From: an uncultured Elusimicrobia bacterium
GTDB taxonomy: Bacteria > Elusimicrobiota > Elusimicrobia > UBA1565 > UBA9628
Reading direction: 5' to 3'
Length of the DNA stretch: 64,000 nt
Assembly: GCA_903830945.1 (NCBI GenBank)
Contig: CAIKVT010000058.1
Coordinates: forward strand, 75,487-139,486
Shown: piece after piece, positions 1 through 41,279 of the stretch
Layout of the letters: the number at the start of each line of letters is the position of its first letter
Position numbering within the stretch: the first letter of the stretch is position 1
Translations under genes and position numbers: made by a program
Notes under the pieces: generated by a model
Databases searched by the model: none
Told to the model about the DNA's origin: nothing
The model's input: only the letters and a program-made list of their open reading frames with translations

Positions 1-1072
1 TGCATTCATCCAGGACTGCCGGTCCCTGGACTTGCTCTGGCCGCCGGAGGTGCTCTGCAAGGCCACTGAGCACATCCCGGAGCAGATCGGGCTCATTCAG
101 AGGTTGGAGGCCAAGGGCCTCATCTATCGTACCTCGGACGGCCTCTACTACGACACGGCCAAGTTCCCCGGTTATAGCCGTCTGGCTGGGGAGAGCCACA
201 TCGCCGGCATCAAGGAAGGCTTTCGCGTGGACGCCAATCCGGAGAAGCGCGGCGCCACGGACTTCGCGGTCTGGAAGTTCTCTCCCAAGGACCAGAAACG
301 GCAGATGGAGTGGGATTCGCCTTGGGGTAAGGGCTTCCCCGGCTGGCACATCGAGTGCAGCGCCATGGCCATGAAGTACCTGGGTGAGAGCTTCGACATC
401 CACTGCGGCGGCGTGGACCACATCCCCATCCATCATTCCAATGAGATCGCCCAGGCCGAAGGGGCCACGGGCAAGCCCTTCGTGCGCATCTGGCTGCATG
501 GCGAGTTCCTGCTCATGAACAACGCCAAGATGGCCAAGTCCGCGGGCGGCTTCGTGACCCTGGCCCATCTCAAGGAGAAAGGCTTCGACCCTCTCGACTA
601 CCGCTATCACTGCTACACCGCGCACTACCGCAAGCAGCTTGACTTTACCTGGGAACTGCTGGAGTCGGGCAAGACCGCGCGCCGTCGTTTGCGCGAGGCG
701 GCCGCCGCGGTCAAGGGCGAGGCCTTGCAGCCCATTACCGCGGAGCTGGACAAGGCTTTCCGCGCTGCGGTCGGGGACGACCTTAACATGCCCGGCGCCG
801 TGGCCGCGGTCTGGGATTGCCTGCGCGGCGGTGCGCCCGCAGGCGCCAAGCGGGCCTTCCTGGAGCAGGCCGAGTCCGTCCTCGCCTTGGGGCTGTTCCG
901 GGATGAGGCCCAGGCTCCTCTGCCGGCGCAGGTGCAGGCCTTGGTCGAGCGCCGCGCCGCGGCGCGCGCGGCCAGGGATTTCAAGCTTTCGGATGAGTTG
1001 CGTAAAGACCTGGAATCGCGGGGCATCCTGGTGGAAGACACCAAACAGGGCCAGCGCTGGCGGAGGAAGTAG
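1..1072 (+). CDS. cysS: cysteinyl-tRNA synthetase, C-terminal part (5' end outside window; track ORF starts at an internal TTG)
   Basis: Frame continuous from window start. HIECSAM...GGVDH...KMAKS (KMSKS-like) class I aaRS motifs and CysRS anticodon-binding region seen in translation. Confidence 0.9.
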   Translation, partial: AFIQDCRSLDLLWPPEVLCKATEHIPEQIGLIQRLEAKGLIYRTSDGLYYDTAKFPGYSRLAGESHIAGIKEGFRVDANPEKRGATDFAVWKFSPKDQKRQMEWDSPWGKGFPGWHIECSAMAMKYLGESFDIHCGGVDHIPIHHSNEIAQAEGATGKPFVRIWLHGEFLLMNNAKMAKSAGGFVTLAHLKEKGFDPLDYRYHCYTAHYRKQLDFTWELLESGKTARRRLREAAAAVKGEALQPITAELDKAFRAAVGDDLNMPGAVAAVWDCLRGGAPAGAKRAFLEQAESVLALGLFRDEAQAPLPAQVQALVERRAAARAARDFKLSDELRKDLESRGILVEDTKQGQRWRRK

Positions 1073-1076
1073 CCTC

Positions 1077-1844
1077 ATGTCCCGCCGTGAACCCCGCAGC
1101 GATGCCCAGTGGTTGAGCGGCTTCCATAGCGTGCTTGAGACCTTGCGCAGCAAGCCGGACAGCGCCAAGGAACTCCTGGTAGCTGCGGGCAGCCAGGGTT
1201 CCGAGATCGAGGAGCTCACAAGTCTGGCCCGGGAGGCGGGGGTGCGCGTGCGCACCGTGGACCGCCGGGAGTTGGATCGGGTCGCCGGCGCGAGCCGCCA
1301 TCAGGGCGTGGCCTTACGCGTTGTCTTGCACGAAGGCGAGTCCTTAAAAGGCCTGCTGGAGCGCTTCCCGCCGGAGTCTCGCAAAGGTCTTGTGCTGGTG
1401 GCGCTCGACGAGATCCAGGACCCGCACAACCTCGGTGCTATCGCGCGCTCCGCGGTCAATCTCGGCGCCAGCGCCCTCATCTTGCCGGAGCGGCGCTCCG
1501 CGCCTGTCACCGGGGCCGTGGTGGCGGCCTCGGCGGGCGCCATTCAGAAGCTTCCCGTGGTCAGCGTGGTCAACCTCGGCCAGGCCCTGGAACGTCTTAA
1601 GGAAGCGGGCTTCTGGGTCTACGGCGCCGATGCCGCGGGCCGTCCGGCTTGGGATACGGTCTTCAACACGCCCCTGGTCCTGGTCATTGGTTCCGAGGGC
1701 TACGGGATGCGTCCTTTGGTGGCCAGCATCTGCGACGAGGTGGTGAGCATCCCGCAGGCGGCCGCCGGAGTCGAGAGCCTCAACGCCTCTTGCGCGGCGA
1801 GCGTGCTCCTCTACGAGGTGGCGCGGCAGGTCAGGACGCCATGA
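1077..1844 (+). CDS. rlmB: TrmH/SpoU-family 23S rRNA 2'-O-methyltransferase (RlmB-like)
   Basis: ATG at 1077 just after the cysS stop. SpoU methylase motifs (LVALDEIQDPHNLGAIARS, VIGSEGYGM). The ORF-track N-terminal extension back to 639 overlaps cysS and is rejected. Confidence 0.8.
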   Translation: MSRREPRSDAQWLSGFHSVLETLRSKPDSAKELLVAAGSQGSEIEELTSLAREAGVRVRTVDRRELDRVAGASRHQGVALRVVLHEGESLKGLLERFPPESRKGLVLVALDEIQDPHNLGAIARSAVNLGASALILPERRSAPVTGAVVAASAGAIQKLPVVSVVNLGQALERLKEAGFWVYGADAAGRPAWDTVFNTPLVLVIGSEGYGMRPLVASICDEVVSIPQAAAGVESLNASCAASVLLYEVARQVRTP

Positions 1845-2782
1845 GCCAGGGGCACGCGCAAGGGCATGCTCACGGTCATGCGCACCACGGCCATCAAGGG
1901 CTCTCCGCGGTCGAGTCTCTGACCTGGGCGCTGGGCCTCACCGCGATCTTTTTTGTAGTCGAGCTTGTGGGCGGATGGTGGACCGGCAGCCTGGCGTTGA
2001 TCTCCGACGCTCTGCATATGGGCTTCGATCTGACCGCCTTGGGGTTGGGTCTCTTCGCGGCCCGGATGGCGCGGCGTCCGGCCGACACAAAGCGGACCTT
2101 CGGCTACCAGCGCGTGGAGGTTCTGGTCGCTTTGCTCAACGGCGTCACCTTGATCCTCATCACCGGCATCATCCTGCGCGAGGCTTACGTGCGGTTCTTC
2201 GCGCCGCAGGATATCAAGGCCAAGGAGATGGTGGTCATTGCGATCATCGGCCTTTTGAGCAACCTGGCTGCCGGAGCTGTGCTCTATCGTTCTAGCCGCG
2301 AGAACATCAACATGAGGGGGGCCTTTTTGCACGTGCTCTCCGACGCTCTGGGCTCCTTGGGCGCGGTCATCGCCGGGGTCATCGTCATGGAGACGGGCTG
2401 GCGTCAGGCGGACCCCGTGGTGAGCCTGCTGATCTGCCTTGGCATCGTCGTGACTTCTTATTGGCTGGTGCGCGATTCGGTGCATATCCTGCTTGAAGGC
2501 ACCCCGTCGCACCTGGAGCTGGCGCAGATCCGCGACGCGCTGAGCGCCTTGCCCGGGGTTCGCTCGGTCCATGATCTGCATCTTTGGTCCGTCACCCGGG
2601 GCACGGAGTCCATGAGCGGGCACGTGGTGGTGAGATCCGACGAGCATACCGCCGCCACCGTGCGCGTCGGGGCCAAGCTGCTTAAGGAGCGCTTCGGCAT
2701 CACGCACGTGACCTTGCAGGTGGAGACTTCGGGGCAACCCGAGTGTGAGGACACGGTCCCGCCGCCGACCGAACCGGAATGA
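1841..2782 (+). CDS. cation diffusion facilitator (CzcD/ZitB-like) metal efflux transporter
   Basis: His-rich N-terminus (HAQGHAHGHAHHGH), CDF TM signature (SDALHMGFD, LHVLSDALGS) and C-terminal cytoplasmic domain. ATGA overlap with the rlmB stop. Confidence 0.85.
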   Translation: MSQGHAQGHAHGHAHHGHQGLSAVESLTWALGLTAIFFVVELVGGWWTGSLALISDALHMGFDLTALGLGLFAARMARRPADTKRTFGYQRVEVLVALLNGVTLILITGIILREAYVRFFAPQDIKAKEMVVIAIIGLLSNLAAGAVLYRSSRENINMRGAFLHVLSDALGSLGAVIAGVIVMETGWRQADPVVSLLICLGIVVTSYWLVRDSVHILLEGTPSHLELAQIRDALSALPGVRSVHDLHLWSVTRGTESMSGHVVVRSDEHTAATVRVGAKLLKERFGITHVTLQVETSGQPECEDTVPPPTEPE

Positions 2783-3417
2783 AGCGAGAGCCTGGCGCGG
2801 CTCTGCTCCTGCTCAACGGGGATGTCTCTGATCCCGCCTTGGTGAGGCGGCTGGCGCGGCGATGCGCTTTGCTGATCTGCGCGGATGGGGGGGCGCGCCA
2901 TGCCGTCCGCCTGGGGCTGCATCCGGACGCGGTCGTGGGCGACATGGATTCGGTACCCAGGCCTTTGCCGCGGTCTTGGCGCGGGACTTCTTTTTTATGC
3001 GACTTTGATGAGGATTCCTCCGATTTCGAGAAGGCCCTGGCCTTCGTCGCGCGCACGGGCTGCTCACGGCTTTATGTGGCGGGGATTATGGGCGGACGGC
3101 TCGACCATGCTTTGGTCAACCTGGCCTTGGCCCGGGCTTGGGGCTGCCGGCGCAGCCTGGTGATGGTAGATTGGGGGCTGGCTGCGATTTTGGGCCCGGG
3201 GCGCTACCGGCTGGGACTTAAGAGGGGGGAACTGCTATCGCTCTTGGCCGCCACGCAGCGGGCCAAGCTGTCCGTCAGCGGTGTGCGCTATCCTCTGCGG
3301 CGAGCCGTCCTGGTTCCTGGAGGCCGGGGTTTGAGCAATGTGGCCCGGGGTGCGGTCTCGTTGACCGTGCATGCGGGCCGGGTCTGGGCCATGGCGCCGC
3401 GCGGTTTTTCCCTGTAG
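2779..3417 (+). CDS. thiN: thiamine pyrophosphokinase
   Basis: Conserved TPK motifs (LICADGGA, GDMDS) and C-terminal thiamine-binding region. ATGA overlap with the upstream stop. Confidence 0.7.
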   Translation: MKREPGAALLLLNGDVSDPALVRRLARRCALLICADGGARHAVRLGLHPDAVVGDMDSVPRPLPRSWRGTSFLCDFDEDSSDFEKALAFVARTGCSRLYVAGIMGGRLDHALVNLALARAWGCRRSLVMVDWGLAAILGPGRYRLGLKRGELLSLLAATQRAKLSVSGVRYPLRRAVLVPGGRGLSNVARGAVSLTVHAGRVWAMAPRGFSL

Positions 3418-3493
3418 CAGGCTTCGGCCCGGATTCCACCATCACCCTCCCTACTCCTCCCACCCCTCCCCAGGGGGGAGAGAAACCTTGCTA

Positions 3494-3524
3494 AATTGGA
3501 TATGCCAATTTGGCATATCCAATT
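3494..3524. promoter_or_regulatory. perfect 15-bp inverted repeat with 1-nt spacer (AATTGGATATGCCAA-T-TTGGCATATCCAATT), candidate operator for a dimeric DNA-binding protein
   Basis: Read directly. Arms at 3494-3508 and 3510-3524 are exact reverse complements. Sits in the non-coding gap at the left edge of the putative island, upstream of the HTH gene. Confidence 0.5.
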
Positions 3525-3570
3525 CCCAAACCGCCGTGCGCGAGTTCATTGCTGAAGACCGCGGCCTGAC

Positions 3571-3650
3571 CTACGCTGGCCAGATGGTCCAAGGCCTCGC
3601 GCAGCCCCGCGTAGCGGGGCTGCAGGCCCTCCTTGGCAATTTTGACAGCG
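3571..3650. repeat. decayed duplicate of the 3' end of the P-loop gene (left boundary repeat of the putative island)
   Basis: 3571-3608 matches 11061-11098 at 35 of 38 nt. Minus-strand translation of 3571-3650 (AVKIAKEGLQPRYAGLREALDHLAS) parallels the true C-terminus of the 11050..12024 gene (AVKAVHEGLREALDHLAG). Confidence 0.6.
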
Positions 3651-3668
3651 CTGTAAATTTATGGTCTT

Positions 3669-3881
3669 ATGGTGAGCACTATGAGCGCTAGGATGATTTC
3701 TACCGAAGAAGTGCTGACTACACCCCAAGTCTGCGGCCTGCTGAAGATCACTCGGCAGACCCTTTACACGTGGATGGAGCAGGGGAGAATCAAGCCCTGG
3801 ATGAAGGCGGGGGGAGCGTCATGGCTCTTCATACGCGACGAGATTATGCAGGCCAAGAATTCGAAATATCAGCGGGCTTGA
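3669..3881 (+). CDS. small HTH DNA-binding protein, AlpA/excisionase-like (HTH_17 type)
   Basis: 70 aa. TTPQVCGLLKITRQTLYTWMEQGRI resembles phage AlpA/Xis-type helix-turn-helix. Start uncertain (3669 or 3681). Confidence 0.6.
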   Translation: MVSTMSARMISTEEVLTTPQVCGLLKITRQTLYTWMEQGRIKPWMKAGGASWLFIRDEIMQAKNSKYQRA

Positions 3882-3916
3882 TATGGCACGAGGCAAGGGC
3901 GCTGCGGCGCAGGACA

Positions 3917-4957
3917 ATGGCCAAGATCCCTGAAGTCCACTTAGAGACCTGGAAGAGCCTTTACGCTGAGGCTCAGCGCTTCTCGCAGTCAAAGCCCTGG
4001 CAGCGCATCGATGAATCTCTCTTCTTCGCTGTTCAAGGCCCAGCCACCGGCCAGATGGGCTACGCCTGCATCCTCGGCTCCTTGGGAGAATTCCTCGCCC
4101 TCTCCGTCTATCGCGGCGCGGAAGGTTTCGGCGCATATCAAGCCATGCTCCTCGACGAGCCCGCGCTCGACGAGGAGTCCGCGTTCAAGCAAGACTGCCT
4201 CATGGCCCAGTTCACGGACAGCAAGTACGTGGAGACAGCCGACCGCAAGGTCATCCGCGCCTTGGGCCTGAAGTTCGAAGGCCACAACGCCTGGCCGCTC
4301 TTCCGCAGCTACCGCCCCGGCTATTTCCCCTGGCACCTGGATCAGCAGGAAGCCGCATTCCTGACCCTCGCATTGCGCTGCGCGTGCGATTGGGTCGAAA
4401 AGCTCTCTTCCAGCACACTCAACTCCGCCGAAGCCCCCGGGCAGATATTCACTTACCTGCCCAAGGCCGGAGGATCTCCGGAACTGTCCGACTACGAGAA
4501 CGCCTGGACGCAGCCGCCCGCTGAAGTCCCGCAGCAGCCGGCAGTGTTGGACCCCGCCCGGCTCGCCAGGCTCCAGGCCAAGCCGCTCAAGAAAGGCGGA
4601 GTCTGGGAAGCGGAAGTCTTCTACCTGCCGATCACGATCGCAGACCAGGACCGGCCCTATCACGCGCGCTTGGTCCTGCTGGTGGACCAGGACTCCGGCT
4701 TCATCCTCCCGGGGGGAGTCATGCCTCCGGGAAAGACCGCGGCCCAGCTCCTGGCGGATGCGGTATTGGGCGCCGTCGAAGAGGTCGGCTGCCTGCCCGA
4801 AGAGATACGGCTGCGCGACAGATCCGTCTTGCCGGCCCTGCAAGCGGCAGGCCAGGCGCTCGGCGTTCACGTGAAGATAGGCCGCTTCCGTTCGCTTCCG
4901 CAGGCCAAGAAGTCCCTGGTGAAAAGATTCGCCAGCCAGGGACGAGGAAACTACTGA
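3917..4957 (+). CDS. hypothetical protein (346 aa), no recognisable domain
   Basis: Long ORF with coding-like composition. Start set at MAKIPEVH (ATG 3917) because the longer track ORF overlaps the HTH gene. No motif recognised by eye. Confidence 0.55.
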   Translation: MAKIPEVHLETWKSLYAEAQRFSQSKPWQRIDESLFFAVQGPATGQMGYACILGSLGEFLALSVYRGAEGFGAYQAMLLDEPALDEESAFKQDCLMAQFTDSKYVETADRKVIRALGLKFEGHNAWPLFRSYRPGYFPWHLDQQEAAFLTLALRCACDWVEKLSSSTLNSAEAPGQIFTYLPKAGGSPELSDYENAWTQPPAEVPQQPAVLDPARLARLQAKPLKKGGVWEAEVFYLPITIADQDRPYHARLVLLVDQDSGFILPGGVMPPGKTAAQLLADAVLGAVEEVGCLPEEIRLRDRSVLPALQAAGQALGVHVKIGRFRSLPQAKKSLVKRFASQGRGNY

Positions 4958-4966
4958 TCTAGGAGA

Positions 4967-5380
4967 ATGAAAATGGCATTAGACCTAAGCAGCCTGCGCA
5001 AAGCCGCCGCCTCTCTCCAGCATGCCCTCAAAATCGCCGCCGCCCAGGCCGGCATGGACAGCGAAGACGTCATCCGCGCCGGCGTCATTAAGAACTTCGA
5101 GTTCACTTACGAGCTCTGCTGGAAGTTCATCAAGCGCTGGCTCGAAAAGAACTCTCCCGAAGCCGACCTCGAAGGCCTAACGCGCAAGGAACTTTTCCGC
5201 ATGGCCGCCGAAAGACACCTCATCAAGGACGTCGAGCCCTGGTTCAGGTACCACGCCGCCCGCAACGAAACCTCCCACACCTACGACTCGGCCAAGGCCG
5301 AAATGATCTTCGCAGCGGCCAAGCTCTTCGCGGCCGACGCCCAGGCGCTGCTCAAGGAACTCGAGAAGCGCAATGATTAA
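4967..5380 (+). CDS. hepT: HepT-like (HI0074 family) nucleotidyltransferase substrate-binding protein, toxin of a type VII TA pair
   Basis: 137 aa. Helical HI0074-type sequence with the NETSHTY region (Rx4HxY-like). AGGAG RBS. The second ATG at 4973 may be the true start. Confidence 0.8.
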   Translation: MKMALDLSSLRKAAASLQHALKIAAAQAGMDSEDVIRAGVIKNFEFTYELCWKFIKRWLEKNSPEADLEGLTRKELFRMAAERHLIKDVEPWFRYHAARNETSHTYDSAKAEMIFAAAKLFAADAQALLKELEKRND

Positions 5381-5684
5381 GGCCACTCCCGCCCAACTGC
5401 GCGCCATCAAGGATATCCTCGCCCGGCATCTGTGCGGGGCCGAGGTCCGGGCCTTCGGCTCCCGCGTCAGCGGCAAGCCCAAGCCATACTCCGACCTAGA
5501 TCTCGCCGTGTTCGCGCTCCAAAAGCTCGACGCGACCAGCCTCGAAGAAACGCGCGAGGCCTTTGCGGAGTCCGACCTTCCCTTCCGGGTCGATATCCTC
5601 GATTGGAACGCGATCTCCGAGGAATTCAAGAAGGTCATCGAAGCCGGCTACGAAGTCCTCCAGAAGTCCGGAGCTTGTAGGTAG
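5373..5684 (+). CDS. mntA: MNT-type minimal nucleotidyltransferase (HI0073 family), antitoxin partner of HepT
   Basis: 103 aa. GSRVSGKPKPYSDLDLAV nucleotidyltransferase motif (GS...DxD). 8-bp overlap (ATGATTAA) with hepT. Confidence 0.8.
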   Translation: MIKATPAQLRAIKDILARHLCGAEVRAFGSRVSGKPKPYSDLDLAVFALQKLDATSLEETREAFAESDLPFRVDILDWNAISEEFKKVIEAGYEVLQKSGACR

Positions 5685-5710
5685 GATAAGCCCGCTTCGG
5701 GCTCGCCGCC
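5673..5710. repeat. 38-bp direct repeat, copy 1 (GCTTGtAGGTAGGATAAGCCCGCTTCGGGCTCGCCGCC); overlaps the last 4 codons and stop of the MNT gene
   Basis: 37 of 38 identical to 9757-9794. Contains the small hairpin GCCCG-CTT-CGGGC. Both copies read ...ACR-stop in frame. Confidence 0.7.
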
Positions 5711-5925
5711 CTTGCCGAAGCCGCCCAGGATCTTCAATTCCTCAATGCGCACAGGCTCCCTCTTCCGCTGCCAGGGGCCCGCAGTCGGTAGGATACAATA
5801 GAAAACCGCCTTCGAGGCGGCCGAGTTCCGGCTCTAGGCAACGGCCAGCCTAGGCGGCTGGTAGGTCATCGTCGCCGGGAGGATTGGTAGACAGATTGGG
5901 TGAAGACGCGACGCTGGGGAGGAGC

Positions 5926-6258
5926 ATGAAACAACTGGATTCATATGAGCAGCTTCGAAAGGCAAAGAGAAAATATCTTTATTTATTATGCGTATTCTTC
6001 ATCACAAATCTCCTATCGCGCATCCTGCCTTGGGAGAAATCGCCGATATTTTCCGGTTTGGTCGGGTTGGTTTTCTTATGCCTGGGGGTATGGTATTTAG
6101 TCTGCACCTACCGCTTCACTAGAGCTTTAGGATACGGCGTCGGCAGCGCAATAGGCTGGTCGGTCCTCTCGATAATCCCCATGACTTATGTCTTCGTCAT
6201 GCTGGCCCTCGTTTGGAAATACAAGAAAATGACGAGTCCTCAGGACAGGACAAGATGA
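5926..6258 (+). CDS. small membrane protein (about 110 aa, 2-3 TM helices), lower GC than flanks
   Basis: Hydrophobic stretches LYLLCVFFITNLL and GLVGLVFLCLGVWYLVC, AT-rich codon usage. Start could be 5884 (track) or 5926 (MKQLD, preceded by GGAGGAG). Confidence 0.45.
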   Translation: MKQLDSYEQLRKAKRKYLYLLCVFFITNLLSRILPWEKSPIFSGLVGLVFLCLGVWYLVCTYRFTRALGYGVGSAIGWSVLSIIPMTYVFVMLALVWKYKKMTSPQDRTR

Positions 6259-6604
6259 ATGCCCTCCGAAGTCGGCCGAGCCCGCCTTCTGCAATTATAA
6301 ATCTGGGTCCCTGGCGGGACAAAGTTAGAACCTGGCTGACCCTGGAAGACACGTCCTGCTTCTCAGCCCGGGTAGATGCCCTCGTCCAGAGGAATCCCTC
6401 CCTGAGCACGATGTTAGCAAATCGGTAAGCGCCGCTGATGGGGTGCCCTGAGGGGGGGCCAAGTACCAGACATTTTTCCCCAGCTCCGTCCGCGCCCTCG
6501 CTCCCTCCGCCCTCGCCGTTGCGCCCAGCCCCCGCTGATGTCATCCTTGACGCCCCCACGATCCCGACGACACTGGCATCCCCCGTGGCTAAACTGTATC
6601 ATAG

Positions 6605-6635
6605 CGACTGCGGGCACCCTCCGGGTGCCCGCAGT
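6605..6635. other. perfect 14-bp-stem / 3-nt-loop GC-rich hairpin (GACTGCGGGCACCC-TCC-GGGTGCCCGCAGTC) in a 580-bp non-coding stretch
   Basis: Read directly. No U-tract on either strand, so not a canonical intrinsic terminator. 5774-5790 shares CCCGCAGTCGG(T/A)AGG with its right half. Confidence 0.5.
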
Positions 6636-6840
6636 CGGAAGGGGGGAGGTCGGAGGGATGATGCTGGCGAGGCGAGGGGCTCGAAGCGGGGTTATTCTAT
6701 CTACAATCATCCGCCCGCATACTCCAGGCGGAGCATAAGGGCGGAAGGGGGGGACTCCAGTGGCAAAAGCGAAGCGTGGCTATCGGCTCAAAGTGCCGTT
6801 ATCCTTACCTACGTGCAAGAAAGAGCGCAACCTATTGCGA

Positions 6841-7386
6841 TTACTTCCAAGCGGAAAAAAATCCCCAGGCGGCAAGGCTTCCTGACGCAAGCTTGGCAAC
6901 AATCGCGTTGGCGCCCAGAGCATGCACCAGCGCATGATGGAGCAGCCAGGCTGCATAAAACGCGTAGGCGCAAAGCCCAACGGCCGAGAGCCAATGGATG
7001 TTCGCCAATTGCGTCATTCGGACCAACACATAGGCCGGTATCAATAATTGCAAATTCGCGGAAACCCGCATCGCCGTCGGAGCGTCGGTCTTGCCGCCGG
7101 AAACGAAAGCCAGCACCCCGAGGATGCCGGCGCCGGCCAAGACCAGGGTCGCCGAATTGATCGCCGCAAAAAGGAAACCCATCGCGTCTGGCCGCCAATG
7201 ACTCTGCAGCCAGTTGCAGAGATCGAAACCAATCTCACCGGCCGTGTTGTAGACCAGCGATCGCAAGAAGGAATCCGCGTATCCGCCTCCGCGCGGCATG
7301 GCAATAAAATATTTCTTAGGTGATAACAGTGCCGTCTTGGTTTCAATCCAATAATTCCACGGAGACGGCTCATGCACCCAAACCAT
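6841..7386 (-). CDS. integral membrane protein, function unknown
   Basis: 181 aa. Strong RBS (GAGGAGGAGAAATC-ATG). Several hydrophobic helices. Lies in the lower-GC nested segment. Confidence 0.55.
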   Translation of the reverse strand: MVWVHEPSPWNYWIETKTALLSPKKYFIAMPRGGGYADSFLRSLVYNTAGEIGFDLCNWLQSHWRPDAMGFLFAAINSATLVLAGAGILGVLAFVSGGKTDAPTAMRVSANLQLLIPAYVLVRMTQLANIHWLSAVGLCAYAFYAAWLLHHALVHALGANAIVAKLASGSLAAWGFFSAWK

Positions 7387-7398
7387 GATTTCTCCTCC

Positions 7399-8370
7399 TC
7401 AATACGACGCCCATTGTTTATGTTTTGAGTCCACGTGAGTGCAGTCCACAAAAATTGTCCCATAACACGGCGCGCCGGGATCCGAAACATAGCCCCAAAA
7501 GCCCGTATCCTTGACCTTGGCCGGATTCACGCCGCCGCCGGAGCAAACCGCGGCGTCGTAATTGGCAGCCTGAAATCTAAAATTCTGGTGCTCCTTAAGC
7601 AGGGGCTCTACTGGCAACTGAAGTTCGGAAAGCTGCTCCGGATATTTGCCGTTCCTATTCTTATATTGGGACACTGTCAGCCGCATGGTTTTGAGAGACA
7701 TTCTGGTCAAGGCTTCTTGCAACCCAACGTGTCCAGGCCGCACGGTCCAAAAGATTATGGCCAGAGGAAGACACAAGAAGATGGCGCCCAGAAGCTCTCC
7801 CAAAGCCTTTCTTCCGGCGCTAGTCATCGGAAGATAGATAACTCTCGTGCCGACCAGATAATCGTGGAGCGCACGCTTTTGTTTGGTGCAACCCACTAAA
7901 ATGCAGCCGGGGTATAGGCATGTCTGGGCGGCCCAGCGGCCCAGACAGCGGAGGTAAGTCAACGAAGAGCCATCGATGCGGACAATGCGGATGCCGACAA
8001 TCATCTTTCCAATTGTCTGCCCCTGGAAAGTCGCCGGCATCCAAACCCAATCGATCAAGAATATCAGCCAGCTAGCCCATCTAATCCAATGGCTGCTGAA
8101 CGGAACCCCAAACAGAAGAAGAACAGCCATAGGGAAAATCCCAACCAGCGCATCGATAAAATAGGCTCCGGCGCGGACGGCAAAGCCAGCGAGAGATCTG
8201 TCAGCCGTTGCGGCAGCCACGTCAGGAGTGACGGCCGGCTGATCCACCTGATTCAATAATCTGGCATTGCATTTCGTGCAGACCCCGCGGCCTTTGCCGA
8301 GCTCCCTGACCGCGCCGCCGCAATCAGGACAATGGGATAGTTCCGACGCTGCATGACGGGATTTGGCCAT
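7399..8370 (-). CDS. chimeric membrane protein: N-terminal zinc ribbon + RDD-family domain + C-terminal prepilin/pseudopilin-like module
   Basis: CPDCGG...CTKCN zinc ribbon. RDD-like core (RAGAYFIDALV...GQTIGKMIVGIRIV...DYLVGTRVI). C-terminal TM followed by QEALTRMSLKTMRLTVSQYKNRNGKYPEQLSELQ, which resembles the pilin alpha-1 helix and GspG-like NG(R/K)YP motif. Confidence 0.6.
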   Translation of the reverse strand: MAKSRHAASELSHCPDCGGAVRELGKGRGVCTKCNARLLNQVDQPAVTPDVAAATADRSLAGFAVRAGAYFIDALVGIFPMAVLLLFGVPFSSHWIRWASWLIFLIDWVWMPATFQGQTIGKMIVGIRIVRIDGSSLTYLRCLGRWAAQTCLYPGCILVGCTKQKRALHDYLVGTRVIYLPMTSAGRKALGELLGAIFLCLPLAIIFWTVRPGHVGLQEALTRMSLKTMRLTVSQYKNRNGKYPEQLSELQLPVEPLLKEHQNFRFQAANYDAAVCSGGGVNPAKVKDTGFWGYVSDPGAPCYGTIFVDCTHVDSKHKQWASY

Positions 8371-8479
8371 ATTTAAGATTATATTTTATTTTATTTATGC
8401 TCGCGATTAGCGGTCTTTGGGTGCACCCACCCCAGATGGACTTGCGCAATTTAATAATCCTATTATTATCTACTACTCC

Positions 8480-9733
8480 ATGCACAACGAATCCCCAAGC
8501 ACCGAAGGCGCAAACATCCAATCGAACAACTTCCATGTCGCCAGCACTTGGGCGAGAGCGGCCGCCTGGTTTATCGATGGATTCGCCTGCTCTCTATTGC
8601 TCAGTCCATTGCTCGTCAGCCCCATAAAGGCTCTCCTGGCAGGTGATTCCGTGGTGCTCTCTCTCCCGAGGATCCTATCAGGGTGGGCCGTCGTATTCGT
8701 TTATGCAGTCGTTTTCAATAAACACAAGAATGCGACGCCCGGAAAGATGCTGTTCGGCCTCAAGATCATCCCCGTCGCGGCGGACCGGCTGGATCTGTCA
8801 TGGACGCAAGTCGTTCTAAGAAGAGCGACTGAGATGCTGTTGGGCCTGCCATTCTCATTAGCCCCTCAGGCGGTTGCGTTCTTCCGTCCCGATCGCAGGC
8901 AACTGGCAGATCTCGTGGCAGGGACACGCGTGGTTCAGGGATCTTCCAGGGGAAAGGATGCCAAGCCTCGCTGGATATTGGGCTCGCTGTGCATCATCTA
9001 TTTTGGGCTGACAGGCATTTCAAAATTTTTGATGACAGCCAGAAATATAACTCCCGACGGCCTTCGCATAACGCGATCGATGAGAGCACTCACGCCTGCC
9101 TCACGGACCGGGACTTCTTATCACTCTCCGGCTGAGGGGGATCCCACCGTCCCAGGCGTCAGCATCCGTCACAATCTTGACGCAGCCAAAGATATGGGCG
9201 AGGCCGCAGAGCTTTCCCGCAAGGCTTGCGACGCGGGAAGTGGTGAAAGCTGTTTCGATCTTGGCGTCATGTACACAAAAGGTCTCGGGGTGAGCAAAGA
9301 CATGGAGAAAGCCATGGACTTCTATCGCAAGGCCTGCGACATGAAGATCGGTCAAGGTTGTTTTAATCTCGGTGTCAAACACGCGATAGGCCCAGGCACA
9401 CCCGAAGACAGGAGGGAAGCCAGGGAGCTCTTCCTCAAGGCCTGCGATCTCGGGGAGGGCAGAAGCTGTATCAATCTGGGCAACCTGCATGAACAAGGAC
9501 AAGGTGTGCCCAAGGATATCGAAAAAGCATTGGTGTTTTATCGCAAAGCCTGCGATTTAGGGATGGCCGAGGGGTGCGACAAGACAAAACTCCTCAGCGG
9601 CAGACAGACGTCCGGCTTGACCAATAGACCGGACAACAGAGAGAGCAGCACCGACGAGATGAACTGCCCAATGGGGATGAAAGCCGTAGCCACCGGTAGT
9701 GCCTTCCAGCCCTGGAAATGCGTCTCTGAATAA
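8480..9733 (+). CDS. chimeric protein: N-terminal RDD-family membrane domain + C-terminal Sel1-like repeats
   Basis: RDD-like region (WARAAAWFIDG...TPGKMLFGLKIIPV...ADLVAGTRVVQ). At least 4 Sel1-type repeats (KACDAGSGESCFDLGVMYTKGLGVSKDMEKAMDFYRKAC and similar). Divergent from the 7399..8370 gene across an AT-rich promoter region. Start 8480 (ATG) preferred over 8417. Confidence 0.6.
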   Translation: MHNESPSTEGANIQSNNFHVASTWARAAAWFIDGFACSLLLSPLLVSPIKALLAGDSVVLSLPRILSGWAVVFVYAVVFNKHKNATPGKMLFGLKIIPVAADRLDLSWTQVVLRRATEMLLGLPFSLAPQAVAFFRPDRRQLADLVAGTRVVQGSSRGKDAKPRWILGSLCIIYFGLTGISKFLMTARNITPDGLRITRSMRALTPASRTGTSYHSPAEGDPTVPGVSIRHNLDAAKDMGEAAELSRKACDAGSGESCFDLGVMYTKGLGVSKDMEKAMDFYRKACDMKIGQGCFNLGVKHAIGPGTPEDRREARELFLKACDLGEGRSCINLGNLHEQGQGVPKDIEKALVFYRKACDLGMAEGCDKTKLLSGRQTSGLTNRPDNRESSTDEMNCPMGMKAVATGSAFQPWKCVSE

Positions 9734-9756
9734 GCCATCCCAATTTTACCCACTTG

Positions 9757-9794
9757 GCTTGCAGGTAGGATAAGCCCGCTTCGGGCTCGCCGCC
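9757..9794. repeat. 38-bp direct repeat, copy 2 (GCTTGcAGGTAGGATAAGCCCGCTTCGGGCTCGCCGCC)
   Basis: 37 of 38 identical to 5673-5710. Lies 23 bp downstream of the RDD-Sel1 gene stop. Confidence 0.7.
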
Positions 9795-9796
9795 TT

Positions 9797-9897
9797 CCCC
9801 TCAACGGCTGCGCCCAGTCGCATGGTATCGCAAAGCCGCCAATCAAGGCAATGCCGAAGCGAAAAACAAAATCGCCGAATTAGAGCGCACCAAATAG
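9797..9897 (+). pseudogene. orphan C-terminal fragment of a Sel1-repeat protein (…PVAWYRKAANQGNAEAKNKIAELERTK-stop), no start codon
   Basis: In-frame translation after repeat copy 2 gives a canonical Sel1 C-terminal repeat. An upstream in-frame TAG lies inside the repeat. Followed by the hairpin GGGTTG-GGCT-CAACCC. Confidence 0.4.
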
Positions 9898-10187
9898 GAC
9901 ACCACTTCCGGGGTTGGGCTCAACCCGAGTCATTTCTGCAGGCTCTTGAGAAAGGCCATCAACCCTGGCCGGTTATGCCAAGAGTGCGCTCTTCCTAAAT
10001 CGTGGACTTCGCAGGAATTTGGGGCCTTAGCTTTCGTCTCGAGGTCTACCCGGCGTAAATGTTTATCGTATCGAGGGAGACAGCCCGAGCCAAGCGCGAA
10101 TTGTATTTATATCGACACGATTGAGAAAAACTCGATCTGAAGCGGCGCGGCCCGCGATACTTGCCCTGCCGCTATTTCAGCGCACCC

Positions 10188-11102
10188 CTACTTGCAGTCT
10201 TCCGGACAGTTGCACTTGTTCTCGAACTTCTCGTCGCAGCCCCCATCGCCGCAGGCCAGGCATATCCCGGCGTAGCCGCCGATCGGCTGACCGCAGGCGG
10301 CCGCCACTGTCCTCTCGACAAGGCCCGCGCAGCATTGCGGGATGGTGTTATACCCCGGGCCGTTCGGCACGGGGGCTTCGCCGAGCTTCTTGCAGTTGGA
10401 GGGGGCCGAGAGGGCGCGCTTCCGGGCGCTCCAGGACTCGAGGACGCGGAATCCGGACTTGAAATCATTCAAGCCCTCGCGGCTCGGAGCCGGTGCAGGC
10501 GCCGGGCCCGCGCGCGGAGCGCTTACGAGCGCCAGGTACGTCGTCGCGTCATGGTCGAAGAGGGCCATGACGATGCCGTCGTAGTCGACCAGGCCCATCG
10601 GCTGTTTGAGGAGCCACGGGGTCCTGGCGAACTGCCGGCCCCAGGACGCGATGTCCTTGTCGTCGCCGAGTTTCTTCGCCAGGCAAGAGCCAGGGCTGCC
10701 CGATTTTAAATCAAGGACCGCGTAGGGCTTGCCCGCGATGAAGGCCCAGGTCTGAAATCGCGAGGCGCCCTTAAGGAGTGCTTTCAGCCCCGCCGGGTCC
10801 TGCGCGGAGAGACGTCTGAACTCATCATCCTGCAGGTGATGTGTGGGCATCGGCACACCTAAGGAGATGTCTCCTTCATCGAGCGAGAGCCTGTCCCGTC
10901 TTGCCCAATCGACGATGCCGGGGCGCATCTTCTCATAGCACTTGCGGGCTTCCTGGGTCGGCGTCGCCGCTGACACGCGCAGCGGCAGTCCGAGCAGGAG
11001 CGCCAAGCCGCAGGTCAGGGCAGCCAAGGCGATGCCTCGAAGCCGCAGCTTAGCGCCTCGCCACGCCGGCCAGATGGTCCAAAGCCTCGCGCAGCCCCTC
11101 AT
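10188..11102 (-). CDS. secreted protein with Cys-rich C-terminus (hypothetical)
   Basis: Signal peptide (RLRGIALAALTCGLALLLGLPLRVSAA). Last 60 aa contain 11 Cys (CCAGL...CGQ...CLACGDGGCDEKFENKCNCPEDCK). The track start at 11102 overlaps the upstream gene by 52 nt. The true start is probably an internal CTG/TTG near 11047 after a GAGG. Confidence 0.5.
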   Translation of the reverse strand: MRGCARLWTIWPAWRGAKLRLRGIALAALTCGLALLLGLPLRVSAATPTQEARKCYEKMRPGIVDWARRDRLSLDEGDISLGVPMPTHHLQDDEFRRLSAQDPAGLKALLKGASRFQTWAFIAGKPYAVLDLKSGSPGSCLAKKLGDDKDIASWGRQFARTPWLLKQPMGLVDYDGIVMALFDHDATTYLALVSAPRAGPAPAPAPSREGLNDFKSGFRVLESWSARKRALSAPSNCKKLGEAPVPNGPGYNTIPQCCAGLVERTVAAACGQPIGGYAGICLACGDGGCDEKFENKCNCPEDCK

Positions 11103-12024
11103 GCACGGCCTTGACCGCCGCCGGCTTCCAGGAGCTCTGGGCCTCGCGCAGGAATGACGTCTTGTCCACCCGGTTGTCGAAGCGCGCCACCGGGAGGTGA
11201 TAGGTCTTGCCGTGCGCCTTGACGGTGACGGTCCCGGGCTGCTCCGAATTCTTGAGCAGCCACTCCATGTCGTCCTGACCGTAGTCGTTGAGCATGACCT
11301 CGATGGGCACGCCGTGGTGTAGGATCGACCCTGGGTCCTTCGGGTTGCTGCGGGCTTGGTTCTTGCGGCGCGATTCCTCGGGAGTCACCCAGATGTAGAG
11401 GATGGCGGCCGTTTCGAGTAGCTTGGGCGAGAGCCGGCCCAGAGAATATCGGTAGCCGAATGGCTCGGCCAGGGGCTGCTGGGCGTTGAGCGGGCCGCCC
11501 CGGGCGAATTCGATGACTAAAGTCTTGCTATCGAAAGTGTCGGGATAGCTCTCCTGCTTCTCCTTGATCATCTTGCTGGCTTCTGTCTCCAGGGAATCAG
11601 CCAGCTTTATCCTGTGGGATTTATCGAGTTGTCCCAGCCGCGCCGGGGCGCCGACTTTGACTGAAGCGCGGTCGAAGCGGTCCAAGAGGTCCAAGGTCGC
11701 GGATTTTGGATTGAGGAATCTCTTGCGCAGCAGGTCCTCGTGGTCCTCATTGATCAGCTCGATCAGTGTGCCCCAATCCAGGGCATTGCGGAAGGGATGC
11801 TCCGGGGATTGGAAGAACACACGTTCATGGCCCATGCTCACCAGTTCGTCGTCGACGCGCCGCATCATGTGCACGTAAGGGAAATCGTCGAGCTGCACGC
11901 TGTTGCCCATGTGGAAGTCCTGGCGCCGCAAGTCCGCGGGCATCAGGTCCAGATAACGACGCACCTCGGATTTTCCCGAGGCGGGCAGGGCGAGCAGCAG
12001 GACGGTGTCGAGGACCTTGTTCAT
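11050..12024 (-). CDS. P-loop NTPase / kinase-like protein (324 aa), function unknown
   Basis: Start ATG 12024 (MNKVLDTV). Walker-A-like LLLALPASGKSE. The track ORF extends to 12468, but that N-terminal 148 aa is antisense of the upstream gene. ATGA-coupled to the 12021..13121 gene. Confidence 0.6.
   Translation of the reverse strand: MNKVLDTVLLLALPASGKSEVRRYLDLMPADLRRQDFHMGNSVQLDDFPYVHMMRRVDDELVSMGHERVFFQSPEHPFRNALDWGTLIELINEDHEDLLRKRFLNPKSATLDLLDRFDRASVKVGAPARLGQLDKSHRIKLADSLETEASKMIKEKQESYPDTFDSKTLVIEFARGGPLNAQQPLAEPFGYRYSLGRLSPKLLETAAILYIWVTPEESRRKNQARSNPKDPGSILHHGVPIEVMLNDYGQDDMEWLLKNSEQPGTVTVKAHGKTYHLPVARFDNRVDKTSFLREAQSSWKPAAVKAVHEGLREALDHLAGVARR
11061..11098. repeat. 38-bp repeat, complete copy at the 3' end of the P-loop gene (partner of 3571-3608)
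   Basis: CCACGCCGGCCAGATGGTCCAAAGCCTCGCGCAGCCCC. On the minus strand it encodes ...HEGLREALDHLAG. Confidence 0.6.
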
Positions 12025-13121
12025 GACTTGACCTCCAGGGGTCGCATTGGGATCTCGTTGGCCTTGGCCAGCTCGAAGACGCGCTTCTTCTCGGCCAGCG
12101 AGAGGAAGCCTACGGCTACCAGGATGAGCGCCAGCGAGCACCAGTCCGCCGGGCTCGGGAACTTGGCGCCGAAGATGAAGAAGGAGAGCAGCGTCGCCGT
12201 GGTGCCGGCTACCAGCGAGGTCAGGCGATTGACCAGGCCGGCGAAGGTGGCCGTGCGGCCTTTGAACATGAAGATGAAGACCGAGAAGAAGGCCACCATG
12301 CCGTAGACAGCGCCCGCGCCGGTGGCGGGAAACCAGCGGGGGTGGATATGTCTCAGGGCGGCGTGGAACTCGAGTACGGGCCGGGCCGAAGACGAGCTGG
12401 TGAATAGGCCGAGCGTGATGAGGGCCATGGCTACGGAGGCCGAGATCTGTTCGATGGAGAAGAACCACTTGTTGTCGAGCGGCGCGCCCTTGGGCCGGGT
12501 GTTCTTGTAGTAGTTCATGATGTAGATGCGCAGCGCGTAGGCGCAGATGTAGCTCGACAGCACGGCCATGGCCGTGCTGTTCTTGAGGAAATCGAAGTCT
12601 TCGCTGCGGGCCAGGAAGACTTGCGTGGCGGCCGCGGCTACGGCGAAGACCACCGCCACATTCTCTTCCCAGTACACCTTTTTATGCAGGATGCCCTGGC
12701 GGATCTGCGCCTCGTCGACCAGGCGGCTGATGACGATGACGCTGGCCCGCATGATGACCATGGCGACCATCACGGACTTGAGCAGCATGTACATCAAGGT
12801 CGTAGTCGGGATGACCACGGCCGTGCACACGCCCGAGGGGATGATGTAGGCGCATTCCGCGGGCAGACGCAGCGGGCCCAGACGCACGAAGCGGTCGGTC
12901 TTGGTGCGGTACCACCCCGCGGCCAGCACCACGATCAGGCAGATGAGCGAGCCGCCCAAGGTGCTCCAGACCAAAAACTCCATGTCCGTCATGGCCGGCG
13001 TCACTATGGCGTAATGGCCTGTGAAGCACTTGGTGGCCACGCCGAAGATGACGTAGAAGAAGTAGTAGGCCAGGCAGAGCTGGACCAGGCGGCCGGTGGA
13101 GCCTTCAGCGGTCTTCCACAT
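12021..13121 (-). CDS. polytopic integral membrane protein (about 10 TM), function unknown
   Basis: 366 aa with many hydrophobic helices. Stop overlaps the P-loop gene start. Start overlaps the fumarase stop (TGATG). Confidence 0.6.
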   Translation of the reverse strand: MWKTAEGSTGRLVQLCLAYYFFYVIFGVATKCFTGHYAIVTPAMTDMEFLVWSTLGGSLICLIVVLAAGWYRTKTDRFVRLGPLRLPAECAYIIPSGVCTAVVIPTTTLMYMLLKSVMVAMVIMRASVIVISRLVDEAQIRQGILHKKVYWEENVAVVFAVAAAATQVFLARSEDFDFLKNSTAMAVLSSYICAYALRIYIMNYYKNTRPKGAPLDNKWFFSIEQISASVAMALITLGLFTSSSSARPVLEFHAALRHIHPRWFPATGAGAVYGMVAFFSVFIFMFKGRTATFAGLVNRLTSLVAGTTATLLSFFIFGAKFPSPADWCSLALILVAVGFLSLAEKKRVFELAKANEIPMRPLEVKS

Positions 13122-14809
13122 CAGGAGCCTCTGGGCGCGGGATGCAGCGGCAGGGGCTTGGCCGCCGCCAGGGGGCAGAGGTTGCGGTAGAAGTCGTTGC
13201 CCTTGTCGTCGATGAGGATGAAGGCCGGGAAGTCGACGACATCTATGGAGTAGACCGCCTCCATGCCCAGCTCAGGGTATTCTAGAAGTTCGACTTTCTT
13301 GATGCATCGCTGTGCCAGTACCGCGGCTGGGCCGCCGATAGTGCCCAGGTAGAAGCCGCCGTGCCTTTTGCAAGCCTCGGTCACGACCGGGCTGCGGTTG
13401 CCCTTAGCGATCATGACAAGAGACGCCCCGTGATCCTGGAAGAGGTCCACGTAGGAGTCCATGCGGCCGGCCGTGGTGGGGCCCAGCGAGCCCGAGGCCT
13501 TGCCCGGAGGTGTCTTGGCCGGGCCGGCGTAGAGCACGGGATGGTCCTTGAGGTATTGCGGCAGGCCCTCGCCGCGGTCGAGGCGTTCCTTGAATTTGGC
13601 GTGGGCGATGTCGCGCGCCACGATGATGCGGCCGCAGAGCGAGAGCCGCGTGGCGACCGGATGCTTGGAGAGCTCGGCCAGGACCTCGGTCATGGGCCGG
13701 TCGAGGTCCACGCGGATCGCTTCATCGGCGCCCTTGCGGCGCTGCGCGGCCGGGATGAGTTTCTCGGGATGGCGCTCCAGGGCCTCGAGCCAGATGCCGG
13801 ACTTGTCGATCTTGGCGAGCATGCTGCGGTCCGCGGAGCAGGAGACGGCCATCCCCACTGGGCAGGACGCGCCGTGCCGGGGCAGGCGGATGACGCGCAC
13901 GTCGTGGGCGAGGTGCTTGCCCCCGAACTGGGCGCCGAAGCCGGACTTACGCGCGGCCTCCAGGAGCTCGTTTTCCAGGCACAGGTCGCGGAAGGCCCGG
14001 CCGTGGCTATCTCCGCTGGCGGGAAGGGCGTCGTAATAGCCGGTCGAGGCGAGTTTGACGGTCTTAAGACAAGCGTCGGCCGAGGTTCCGCCCACGACGA
14101 AAGCGATGTGATACGGCGGGCAGGCGGCGGTGCCCAGGGATCTCATCTTCTCGGTCAGGAACTTCTTCAAGGATGCGGGGTTGAGCAGGGCCTTGGTCTC
14201 CTGATAGAGCACGGTCTTGTTGGCCGAGCCCCCGCCCTTGGCTATGAAGAGGAACTTGTACTCCATGCCCGGCGTAGCGTAGATGTCGATCTGGGCGGGC
14301 AGGTTGTTTCCGGAGTTCTTCTCCTCGTACATGTCCAGGGCTACGGTCTGTGAGTAGCGCAGGTTCTCCTGGGTGTAGGTCTGCCAGACGCCGCGCGTGA
14401 GCCATTCTGCGTCATCGGCCCCGGTCCAGACGTTTTGACCTTTCCATGCCGTGATGGTGGCCGTGCCGGTGTCTTGGCAGAAGGGGAGTTCGAACTCGGC
14501 GGAGATGACGGAGTTCTCCAGCATGGCGAGGGCCACGAACTTGTCGTTGGCCGAGGCTTCGCGATCTTTAAGGATGGCGGCTACTTGGCGCTGGTGCGCG
14601 GGGCGCAGCAGGAAGGAGATGTCGCGCATGGCTTCTTTGGCGAGCTGCGCCAGGGCCTGGGGTTCGACTCTCAAGATGGGTCGGCCTTCGAATTTGGAGA
14701 CGCTGATGCCGGTCTTGGTCAGCAGGCGATACTTGGCGCGGTCCTTACCGAGCGGGAAGGGGGGGTGGTATTCGAATCGAGCCGCCGGAGTGGGCCTCGC
14801 ACGCTTCAT
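13121..14809 (-). CDS. fumA: class I (Fe-S) fumarate hydratase / tartrate dehydratase-like, fused alpha+beta
   Basis: 562 aa. Diagnostic class I fumarase regions ([36 protein letters not shown]). Confidence 0.85.
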
Positions 14810-38394: not shown

Positions 38395-38458
38395 CAGCTG
38401 AGTTCAAGGATAGGTATTTGGATCCAGCAGCCGAGCGGGGGGCGCGATTTTATTCTAA

Positions 38459-41056: not shown

Positions 41057-41279
41057 CTTCTTTGAGGATATCACAGGCACTGTAGAATCGTCAGCGGCGG
41101 AAGGCCTAGTCGGCTGAGGTTATGCGGCCTATGTGCCCCTAGGCTTTAGGGCCTAAAGCGGCAGAGCCCGGGAGGCTGGGAACGATAGGTCTAAAGATTC
41201 GTCGGTCTGGGGCTGCGGACCCATGCGGGCGCAGGATGACCCTGATATCATAGAACCAGTCCCGCAGAAGGGCTAAATA

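Follow-up and report, generated by a model that had tools for sequence, protein, structure and literature searches.

Segments of DNA that are flanked by short direct repeats, carry no integrase of their own and lie nested or in tandem at a single site are known from cis-mobilizable elements (CIMEs) and from islands that grow by tandem accretion (Pavlovic 2004; Bellanger 2011; reviewed in PMC5704250). The recombinase in trio (RIT) elements have terminal inverted repeats of about 34-37 bp and are driven by tyrosine recombinases, so that no duplication of the target is expected (Van Houdt 2009; Ricker 2013; PMC3414803; PMC10214605). The locus described here resembles both in part. It lies in a 64,000-nucleotide stretch of contig CAIKVT010000058.1 from an uncultured Elusimicrobia bacterium (hereafter the window), in which a 38-bp sequence, here called repeat A, occurs as two direct copies (A1 and A2) about 4 kb apart, the first of them at the 3' end of the gene for a minimal nucleotidyltransferase (MNT) antitoxin. 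An initial annotation had taken the pair for a duplication of the antitoxin gene's 3' end at the insertion of the intervening DNA. We find that A is instead a discrete short repeat unit belonging to imported lower-GC DNA, and that the locus is a nested genomic island in decay that retains repeat scars, a known kind of structure that requires no new mechanism. The features are listed in Table 1.

That the end of the MNT gene is not native is revealed by its homologs. The protein has 1415 homologs, many of those named being from Elusimicrobia, and the closest ones are likewise 103 amino acids long but end in SRA or SRT in place of the ACR of the window. At the DNA level, the alignment with the window stops at position 5672 in the loci L028 (77% identity) and L033 (91%) and at 5670 in L029 and L030 (91%). 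Past this point, the three independent homologous loci (L028, L029/L030 and L033) all read AGCCGC(G/A)C(A/C)TGA, and the start of hsdR overlaps the MNT stop in L028 and L033. Because these loci keep AGCCGC..TGA at the place that the first 12 nt of A occupy in the window, the repeat overwrote the MNT end and is of foreign origin. The boundary 5672|5673 is a true breakpoint, at which the MNT gene lost its own final three codons and stop, now supplied by A1. The proposed duplication of the gene end is thereby contradicted, and the overlap amounts to three codons and the stop rather than four codons and the stop. The locus L032 (80%) departs from the window at 5666, into a different tail. A tidy signature of direct repeats, a gene 3' end and a drop in GC content can thus mislead, as the repeat here overwrote the gene end.

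The repeats themselves were correctly recognized. Repeat A has the sequence GCTTG(T/C)AGGTAGGATAAGCCCGCTTCGGGCTCGCCGCC and is identical at 37 of 38 positions between A1 and A2, with an exact shared stretch of 32 nt. When the 23-nt core was searched with up to three mismatches, A1 and A2 were the only matches in the window, with none expected from 100 shuffles. A third copy, A3, is inverted and diverged (30/38), and it escaped the initial annotation together with a second motif, here called B, and a fragment of an integrase gene. None of the four sequences flanking A1 and A2 is related to another, and the homology of A2 and A3 starts at the same base as the MNT/A1 junction, again with unrelated flanks on both sides. 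At its other edge, A2 directly abuts the 5'-truncated fragment of a Sel1-repeat gene. Since such coincidences are unlikely for random breakpoints, we infer that A is, or was, a recombination site or the end of an element.

The reading of both copies as gene termini fails for A2, which also spells ACR-stop, yet has a stop codon eight codons upstream and lies in no open reading frame (ORF). The idea that A is the 3' end of a gene family was rejected, as the frames upstream of A2 and A3 are interrupted by stops, and so was the idea that A2 is the relic of a second MNT gene, as the coding-like sharing covers only 12 nt and the similarity further upstream is below random. A structured RNA or tRNA as the target was also discarded, since Rfam gave no match over 3-12 kb at E-values up to 1, ARAGORN found no tRNA or tmRNA, and the 38-mer folds no better than its shuffles (z ~0). 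Its sole dyad, two 6-bp arms around a 3-nt loop (AGCCCG CTT CGGGCT), follows a GTAG-type head and has no T-run. Dispersal of the 38-mer as a repeat with dozens of copies, which would have removed its bearing on insertion boundaries, received no support from the sequences searched. A fuzzy search found no copy in the other 60 kb of the window nor in 88 unrelated loci (~1.0 Mb), and degenerate 21-23-mer scans for the core found none in the GTDB species genomes, none in IMG/VR and, in a non-exhaustive scan of the JGI metagenome contigs, this locus only.

The profiles of GC content and tetranucleotides confirmed the compositional shift. The 4,046 nt between A1 and A2 have a GC content of 55.3%, compared to 62.4% for the window, which places them among the three lowest of 1200 windows of 4 kb, and they show the largest tetranucleotide distance of these. 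The GC content at third codon positions (GC3) is 0.58-0.66 in the four genes of the insert versus 0.76-0.90 in the neighboring genes. The repeats do not cleanly bound the AT-richer DNA on the right, since the low GC content continues for about 400 nt beyond A2, to around position 10187 (54% at 9795-10187). In the lineage of the window, the island is replaced from 12 nt before the MNT stop onward by a lower-GC mosaic (5673-10187) that contains three A units, four membrane-protein genes that share a low GC3, the 3' fragment of a Sel1 gene and, from a RitC-type recombinase gene, the last 60 codons. The A units, in the order +, -, +, are all located within 4.1 kb of foreign DNA, each of them 3' of a gene and co-oriented with that gene (MNT, the 181-aa gene and RDD-Sel1), while the four genes of the insert are oriented +, -, -, +.

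In agreement with the initial annotation, Pfam searches identified no mobility gene between A1 and A2, and the large ORFs of the window, covered to ~61 kb, showed no domain of an integrase or a transposase. The RitC fragment is placed 145 nt outside A2, with its 3' end facing A2. It was detected by a blastn search against plasmids alone, in which it matched the third gene of recombinase trios, while Pfam searches of the ORFs gave nothing. The identity is 27/33 to RitC residues 272-303 in BLASTP, and tblastn covers residues 272-331; the segments of the fragment in its three frames read VDINTIRAWLG, VSLDTINIYA and VDLETKAKA...LMAFLKSL. The 4.5-kb block has no phage match and no plasmid match beyond this fragment, and the plasmid matches of the A-B sequences are noise. 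The presence of a degraded tyrosine-recombinase gene so close to A2 suggests ordinary, now dead, recombinase-driven elements rather than an unrecognized mechanism.

Motif B, GGGGCCCGCAGTCGGTAGGATACA, is found 63 nt after A1 and, inverted, 51 nt after A3. The two copies are identical at 21 of 24 positions (88% complementary), and their local alignment is better than that of 300 out of 300 shuffles. Next to B2 there is a third copy, B3, in direct orientation, and the two form a perfect 15-bp hairpin at 6605-6637 (RNA fold -36 kcal/mol, z = -5.5). With its imperfect inverted ends of about 125 nt and a 110-aa ORFan within, the segment 5673-6708 is a 1.04-kb unit that resembles a miniature inverted-repeat transposable element (MITE) in having terminal inverted repeats (A1/A3, 30/38) and subterminal ones (B1/B2, 21/24). 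The inverted copy A3 and motif B have no explanation in a simple duplication at the insertion of the 4 kb.

The mosaic is nested within a larger island. In L036, the closest relative found (Elusimicrobia metagenome-assembled genome STD1_184), the stops of the TPK gene and of p324, the gene for a 324-aa protein with 85% amino acid identity, are only 27 nt apart. The window segment 3418-11049 is therefore an insertion, and the outer segment of 7.6 kb is an island inserted between the convergent genes p324 and TPK of its Elusimicrobia host, which makes p324/TPK an integration site whose empty form is cleanly seen, in a phylum that has been little studied. Of the two nested insertion events suggested by the initial annotation, the outer one was thus upheld, while the inner 4 kb is probably not a simple repeat-bounded insertion. 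Like an att-bounded element, the outer island has an empty site in a relative and a direct repeat that takes in the target gene's 3' end, with the caveats that it has no integrase and that the native-like gene end is at the proximal copy. The distal copy reads GLREALDHLA on the minus strand, without the native GVARR-stop. In relatives, p324 has the same ending, G(V/L)(V/A)RR-stop, and none of ten relatives contains a duplicated p324 end.

The left part of the outer island, with the HTH_17, DUF7309/6930 and HEPN-MNT genes, is a cut-down relative of a type I restriction-modification (R-M) and toxin-antitoxin defense island. Its closest counterpart is L028 (JGI 3300038466, Ga0394676_09910, positions 377-10886), in which HEPN-MNT is embedded between hsdS and hsdR in the array HTH_17-hsdM-hsdS-AAA_21-DUF4276-DUF5131-DUF7309/6930-HEPN-MNT-hsdR. 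We take the AAA_21 and DUF4276 pair in this array to be PARIS-like. The two ends of the array have collinear counterparts in the window at 3638-3912 and 3908-5672 (77% DNA identity), and the HTH_17 gene is homologous to its first gene. In contrast to L028, the window lacks hsdM, hsdS, the AAA_21/DUF4276 pair, DUF5131 and hsdR, and the hsdR side is replaced by the lower-GC mosaic. Judged by its sequence, the HEPN-MNT pair qualifies as a type II toxin-antitoxin system of the kind described (PMC4621449), with adjacent NTase_sub_bind/HEPN and minimal nucleotidyltransferase genes that overlap by 8 nt and match the respective Pfam families, and the pairing is kept in L028, L029 and L032. PADLOC connected the MNT domain with a model for a type I specificity subunit and, weakly, HTH_17 with a MADS component. 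The window thereby documents a reduced type I R-M/HEPN-MNT island in which the antitoxin gene has survived a junction within its final codons.

We tentatively favor, as plausible though far from secure, the reading that the A copies, set in a mosaic of debris from mobile elements, are relics of recombination sites or of element ends. Repeat A, along with B, would be a relic site or element end that was once acted on by a tyrosine recombinase, now degraded or lost. The A1-B1 and B2-A3 segments would represent the inverted ends of a non-autonomous unit of 1.04 kb, and A2 may be a like-oriented solo end or an att-type partner. The direct pair A1/A2 would then mark old recombination junctions and not a target-site duplication around one 4-kb element, and the block 5673-10187 would be a mixture of cargo and remnants of mobile elements that took the place of the hsdR side in the defense island. 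Selection may account for the left junction in the last codons of the MNT gene, as the antitoxin must remain functional. Relics of small tyrosine-recombinase elements fit better than a single 4-kb element because of the inverted A-B ends, the lack of target duplications and the nearby RitC fragment. The cargo proteins, whose homologs are distant Elusimicrobia proteins or absent, agree with this reading. The RIT terminal repeats have a length near the 38 nt of A. Nothing indicates present-day mobility, and the locus consists of the layered remains of island, defense and recombinase debris.

Several observations weigh against it. Only one frameshifted gene piece of 178 nt is left of a RIT element, in three reading frames, and tblastn found no RitA or RitB. 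Repeat A is unrelated in sequence to the terminal repeats of the proteobacterial RIT elements that carry the closest RitC, and these repeats (GTTATGTTGCGGC sub-repeats, 62-67 nt past the ritC stop) have no counterpart beside the fragment. No target-site duplication was found around 5673-6708, the flanks of which (GTCCGGA and TCATCCG) are unrelated, and neither a second full copy of this unit nor an intact recombinase with A-like ends was found anywhere searched. The resemblance to motif B after A2 is weak and without significance on its own (p ~0.1). The position of all three A copies, 3' of and co-oriented with a gene, would also fit a 3'-flank or REP-like repeat. Finally, the JGI contig L019 (Ga0212088_10097056) has A1 and A3 and was missed by the JGI pattern scan, for which reason the negative results from that collection are not exhaustive.

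A CIME-like att relic is an unlikely but serious alternative. The segment 5711-9794 (4.08 kb) would in this case have entered as a circle by Campbell-type site-specific recombination at an existing A site, with A1 and A2 as its attL and attR. The element would have carried cargo only, its integrase having acted in trans or been encoded by a tandem neighbor that is now reduced to the RitC fragment, with tandem accretion followed by decay. Near-perfect direct repeats of 38 nt are of typical att-core size and are present at both ends of the inner 4 kb, their four flanks are mutually unrelated, and the 3' end of a recombinase relic beside A2 points toward it. At the same locus, the outer island likewise combines a 36-nt direct repeat that involves a gene 3' end with the absence of an integrase, and CIMEs and accretion are known phenomena (PMC5704250). 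Further similarities to CIMEs are that the outer repeat takes in the 3' end of a protein gene, that an HTH_17 excisionase-like gene is located at one end and that the site of the outer island is empty in a relative; the absence of a recombinase gene between the repeats is allowed for a CIME. However, neither A copy equals the native target sequence, which MNT homologs keep, and the implied attB would be a solo A between a truncated MNT gene and a truncated Sel1 gene. In contrast to CIMEs, the flanking target gene does not include the inner repeat, the right copy of which is placed inside foreign DNA, there is an inverted third copy, no functional partner integrative and conjugative element (ICE) or integrative and mobilizable element (IME) is known, and the native-looking gene end of the outer island is at the proximal and not at the distal copy. 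The persistence of low GC content beyond A2 and the occurrence of A3 and the B motifs are not explained either, and no empty-site or excised form was seen in any contig.

It is rather improbable that A, with B, represents an intergenic repeat of a lower-GC donor, that is, a repetitive extragenic palindromic (REP)-like or terminator-associated 3'-flank element, and that the block 5673-10187 was imported by illegitimate recombination, with the direct pair unrelated to insertion boundaries. Such an origin agrees with the occurrence of three A copies in both orientations, each following and co-oriented with a gene, with the GTAG-type head and small hairpin and with the extension of the low-GC block past A2. 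Moreover, codon ~100 of the MNT gene is a recurrent junction in other lineages, L032 and P0001 having other tails and the homology of L029 ending there. Like the REP/BIME and REPIN repeats, A is short (~38 nt), extragenic after gene 3' ends and clustered. Unlike these, its copies number only three and are confined to 4.1 kb of foreign DNA, with none in the rest of the window (60 kb), its palindrome is weak, no RAYT-type gene is seen in the window, and one copy extends over a coding end where a breakpoint is proven. The MNT junction matches to the base the left boundary of A, as set independently by A2 versus A3, which is improbable for a random breakpoint, and A2 abuts a truncated gene. The hairpin is also weak (z ~0) and lacks a T-run, and the database scans described above gave no other copy.

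Extended beyond our favored reading of relic sites or element ends, the A/B units might terminate small non-autonomous elements of an undescribed Elusimicrobia family, mobilized in trans by RIT-type or other tyrosine recombinases, with like-oriented ends moving membrane-protein genes as composite or pdif-like modules and with the antitoxin fusion anchoring the array through addiction; we consider this very doubtful. The pdif (Xer) modules of Acinetobacter plasmids, and IMEX, are gene modules between short sites in alternating orientation that have no recombinase of their own and typically carry toxin-antitoxin and Sel1-type cargo. The +, -, + order of the A sites and the lack of a recombinase in the modules are shared with these. 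In contrast, A has no XerC/XerD-like 11-6-11 architecture or conserved TTATG-type arm, the locus is chromosomal and from Elusimicrobia, and no module exchange was observed. Should the A/B units be active ends, this phylum, for which hardly any mobile DNA has been described, would gain a family of small elements, but the current evidence does not support this.

An unrecognized integrative element, or an integron/IMEX-like capture system that targets and duplicates the MNT 3' end, as the initial annotation had suggested from the direct repeats, the lower GC content and the ACR-stop of both copies, can hardly be maintained, since its central point is contradicted by the foreign origin of A, A2 lies outside any ORF, no integrase-family (IntI) match was found among the large ORFs of the window, inspection of the 38-mer revealed neither attC R'' (RYYYAAC) and R' (GTTRRRY) boxes nor a dif-like 28-bp site with two 11-bp arms of partial dyad symmetry around a 6-8-bp center, the enclosed genes are in mixed orientations, unlike integron cassettes, which are mostly co-oriented, and no insert polymorphism was seen.

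Independent assemblies from several lake metagenome samples (L001, L012 and L018 among others) span both A1 and A2, so that the structure is not an assembly artifact. Every contig with the MNT, 110-aa, 181-aa or 279-aa gene has the same arrangement, and no variant that lacks 5711-9794, whether an empty site or an excised form, was found among ~25 population contigs. The insert is fixed and nearly invariant in these contigs, the differences within it being an indel at 8638 and one single nucleotide polymorphism (SNP), apart from a variant junction at 6539-6552 that was found in three samples. L002 departs from the window after 6552, L027 from the same sample ends at 6539, and the gene tables of further contigs agree with this variant. 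Contigs from Logan break at 5708, 5681 and 9792, which are the exact k=31 unitig limits of the 32-nt exact repeat. The overlapping ends of the Logan contig L017 (5681-9792) are therefore an assembler effect and were rejected as evidence for a circular form.

Table 1. Features of the nested island and its repeats, in order of position in the window
Feature	Position	Strand	Evidence or remark
Outer inserted island	3418-11049	.	Between the TPK stop and the stop of p324
Outer repeat, distal copy	3573-3608	+	36-nt partial 3' end of p324; 34/36 to 11063-11098
HTH_17 (excisionase/AlpA-like) gene	3693-3881	+	Left end of island; Pfam PF12728, 5.8e-12
DUF7309/DUF6930 gene	3917-4957	+	Pfam; syntenic with HEPN-MNT in L028 and L032
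HEPN-type toxin gene (NTase_sub_bind)	4973-5380	+	Pfam PF08780, 4.6e-37; coordinates from the L001 gene call
MNT antitoxin gene	5373-5684	+	Pfam PF18765/PF01909; final 12 nt (ACR-stop) from A1
A1	5673-5710	+	Left edge is the MNT breakpoint
B1	5774-5797	+	Has GGTAGGATA in common with repeat A
Hairpin 3' of B1	5804-5822	-	Terminator-like on the minus strand; terminator scan
110-aa membrane ORF	5926-6258	+	46% GC; ORFan
Population variant junction	6539-6552	.	Other DNA joined in some samples, starting in a GerE/LuxR HTH 3' fragment
B2 (inverted) and B3 (direct)	6595-6642	.	B2 6595-6618; B3 6621-6642
A3	6671-6708	-	30/38; left boundary as in A1 and A2
181-aa membrane protein gene, distant Yip1-like	6841-7386	-	Best homologs <=38% identical, carrying Pfam Yip1
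323-aa protein gene: zinc ribbon, RDD domain, pseudopilin-like C-terminus	7399-8370	-	Pfam RDD
RDD-Sel1 fusion protein gene	8480-9733	+	Pfam RDD and Sel1
A2	9757-9794	+	23 nt 3' of the RDD-Sel1 stop; outside every ORF
Candidate degenerate B after A2	9805-9827	+	Best local alignment of the flank falls on the B motif
Sel1-repeat gene 3' fragment (AWYRKAANQGNAEAKNKIAELERTK-stop)	9818-9897	+	Translation; 75% DNA identity to a Sel1 repeat unit
RitC-type tyrosine recombinase pseudogene fragment	9939-10116	-	Last 60 codons, three reading frames
279-aa secreted Cys-rich protein gene	10188-11027	-	Last gene within the outer island; GC 65.6%, GC3 0.82, host-like
Outer repeat, native copy	11063-11098	+	In the 3' end of p324 (minus-strand gene 11050-12024)
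Junction expected after loss of 5711-9794			MNT...CCGGA + A + TTCCCCTCAACGG
Junction expected for circular form of the segment			CCCACTTG + A + CTTGCCGAAG

Among the cargo proteins, the 110-aa protein had no homolog but itself among 5.8 billion proteins. The homologs of the 323-aa protein are <=45% identical, mostly from Elusimicrobia and annotated as RDD/PulG by JGI, and its relatives occupy ordinary chromosomal neighborhoods, for which reason a mobile context of these homologs was rejected. The single-base indel at 8638 shifts the called start of the RDD-Sel1 gene between population contigs (360 versus 417 aa). In one 124-kb contig both RDD genes were called as short fragments, which suggests that the RDD genes are pseudogenized in some strains.

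The Sel1 fragment after A2 has a weak Pfam Sel1 match (E = 0.046). A restoration of the Sel1 gene by removal of the 287 nt between two TATCGCAAAGCC 12-mers was considered and rejected, as the intervening DNA continues the Cys-rich repeat pattern of the native gene. This native gene, which encodes the 279-aa protein, has no Pfam or PADLOC match. Its end, GAC TGC AAG TAG G (GACTGCAAGTAGG; window 10188-10200), matches the A head GCT TGY AGG TAG G in inverted orientation at 10 of 13 positions, exactly at the right edge of the low-GC block and mirroring the MNT/A1 junction. The match is probably due to chance, since we estimate that ~16 such matches are expected per window.

The MNT homologs P0001-P0010 and L032 (2070-2104) are near-identical to about residue 100 and then continue in unrelated short tails (SRA, SRT, NDGPS, RRSRA, ACR), and a cassette boundary seems to have been located repeatedly within the last codons of the antitoxin. 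In the JGI contig L004, 16 differences are concentrated within the HEPN gene (5173-5359) while the downstream insert is identical, suggesting allelic exchange of the toxin gene. The DUF7309/6930 gene is a possible functional partner of HEPN-MNT, as the two occur together in the window, L028 and L032, three independent loci. A perfect 31-nt palindrome, AATTGGATATGCCAA-A-TTGGCATATCCAATT, is located inside the outer island at 3494-3524, with the TPK terminator on one side and the distal p324-end copy on the other, and could be an operator or a recombination site.

At the variant junction, the GerE/LuxR fragment (L002 11181-11299) reuses the ATG at 6538, and the left and right variant contigs overlap by 14 nt. 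Outside the island, a gene for a 366-aa membrane protein (12531-13214) contains dense clusters of SNPs among the near-identical contigs L001, L012 and L013, while its flanking genes are invariant, suggesting recombination tracts or diversifying selection. A second stretch of lower GC content (56-60%) is located at 36000-44000 and includes a gene for an 873-aa protein without a Pfam match (38459-41080), beside genes for Nramp, HD-domain and MFS proteins.

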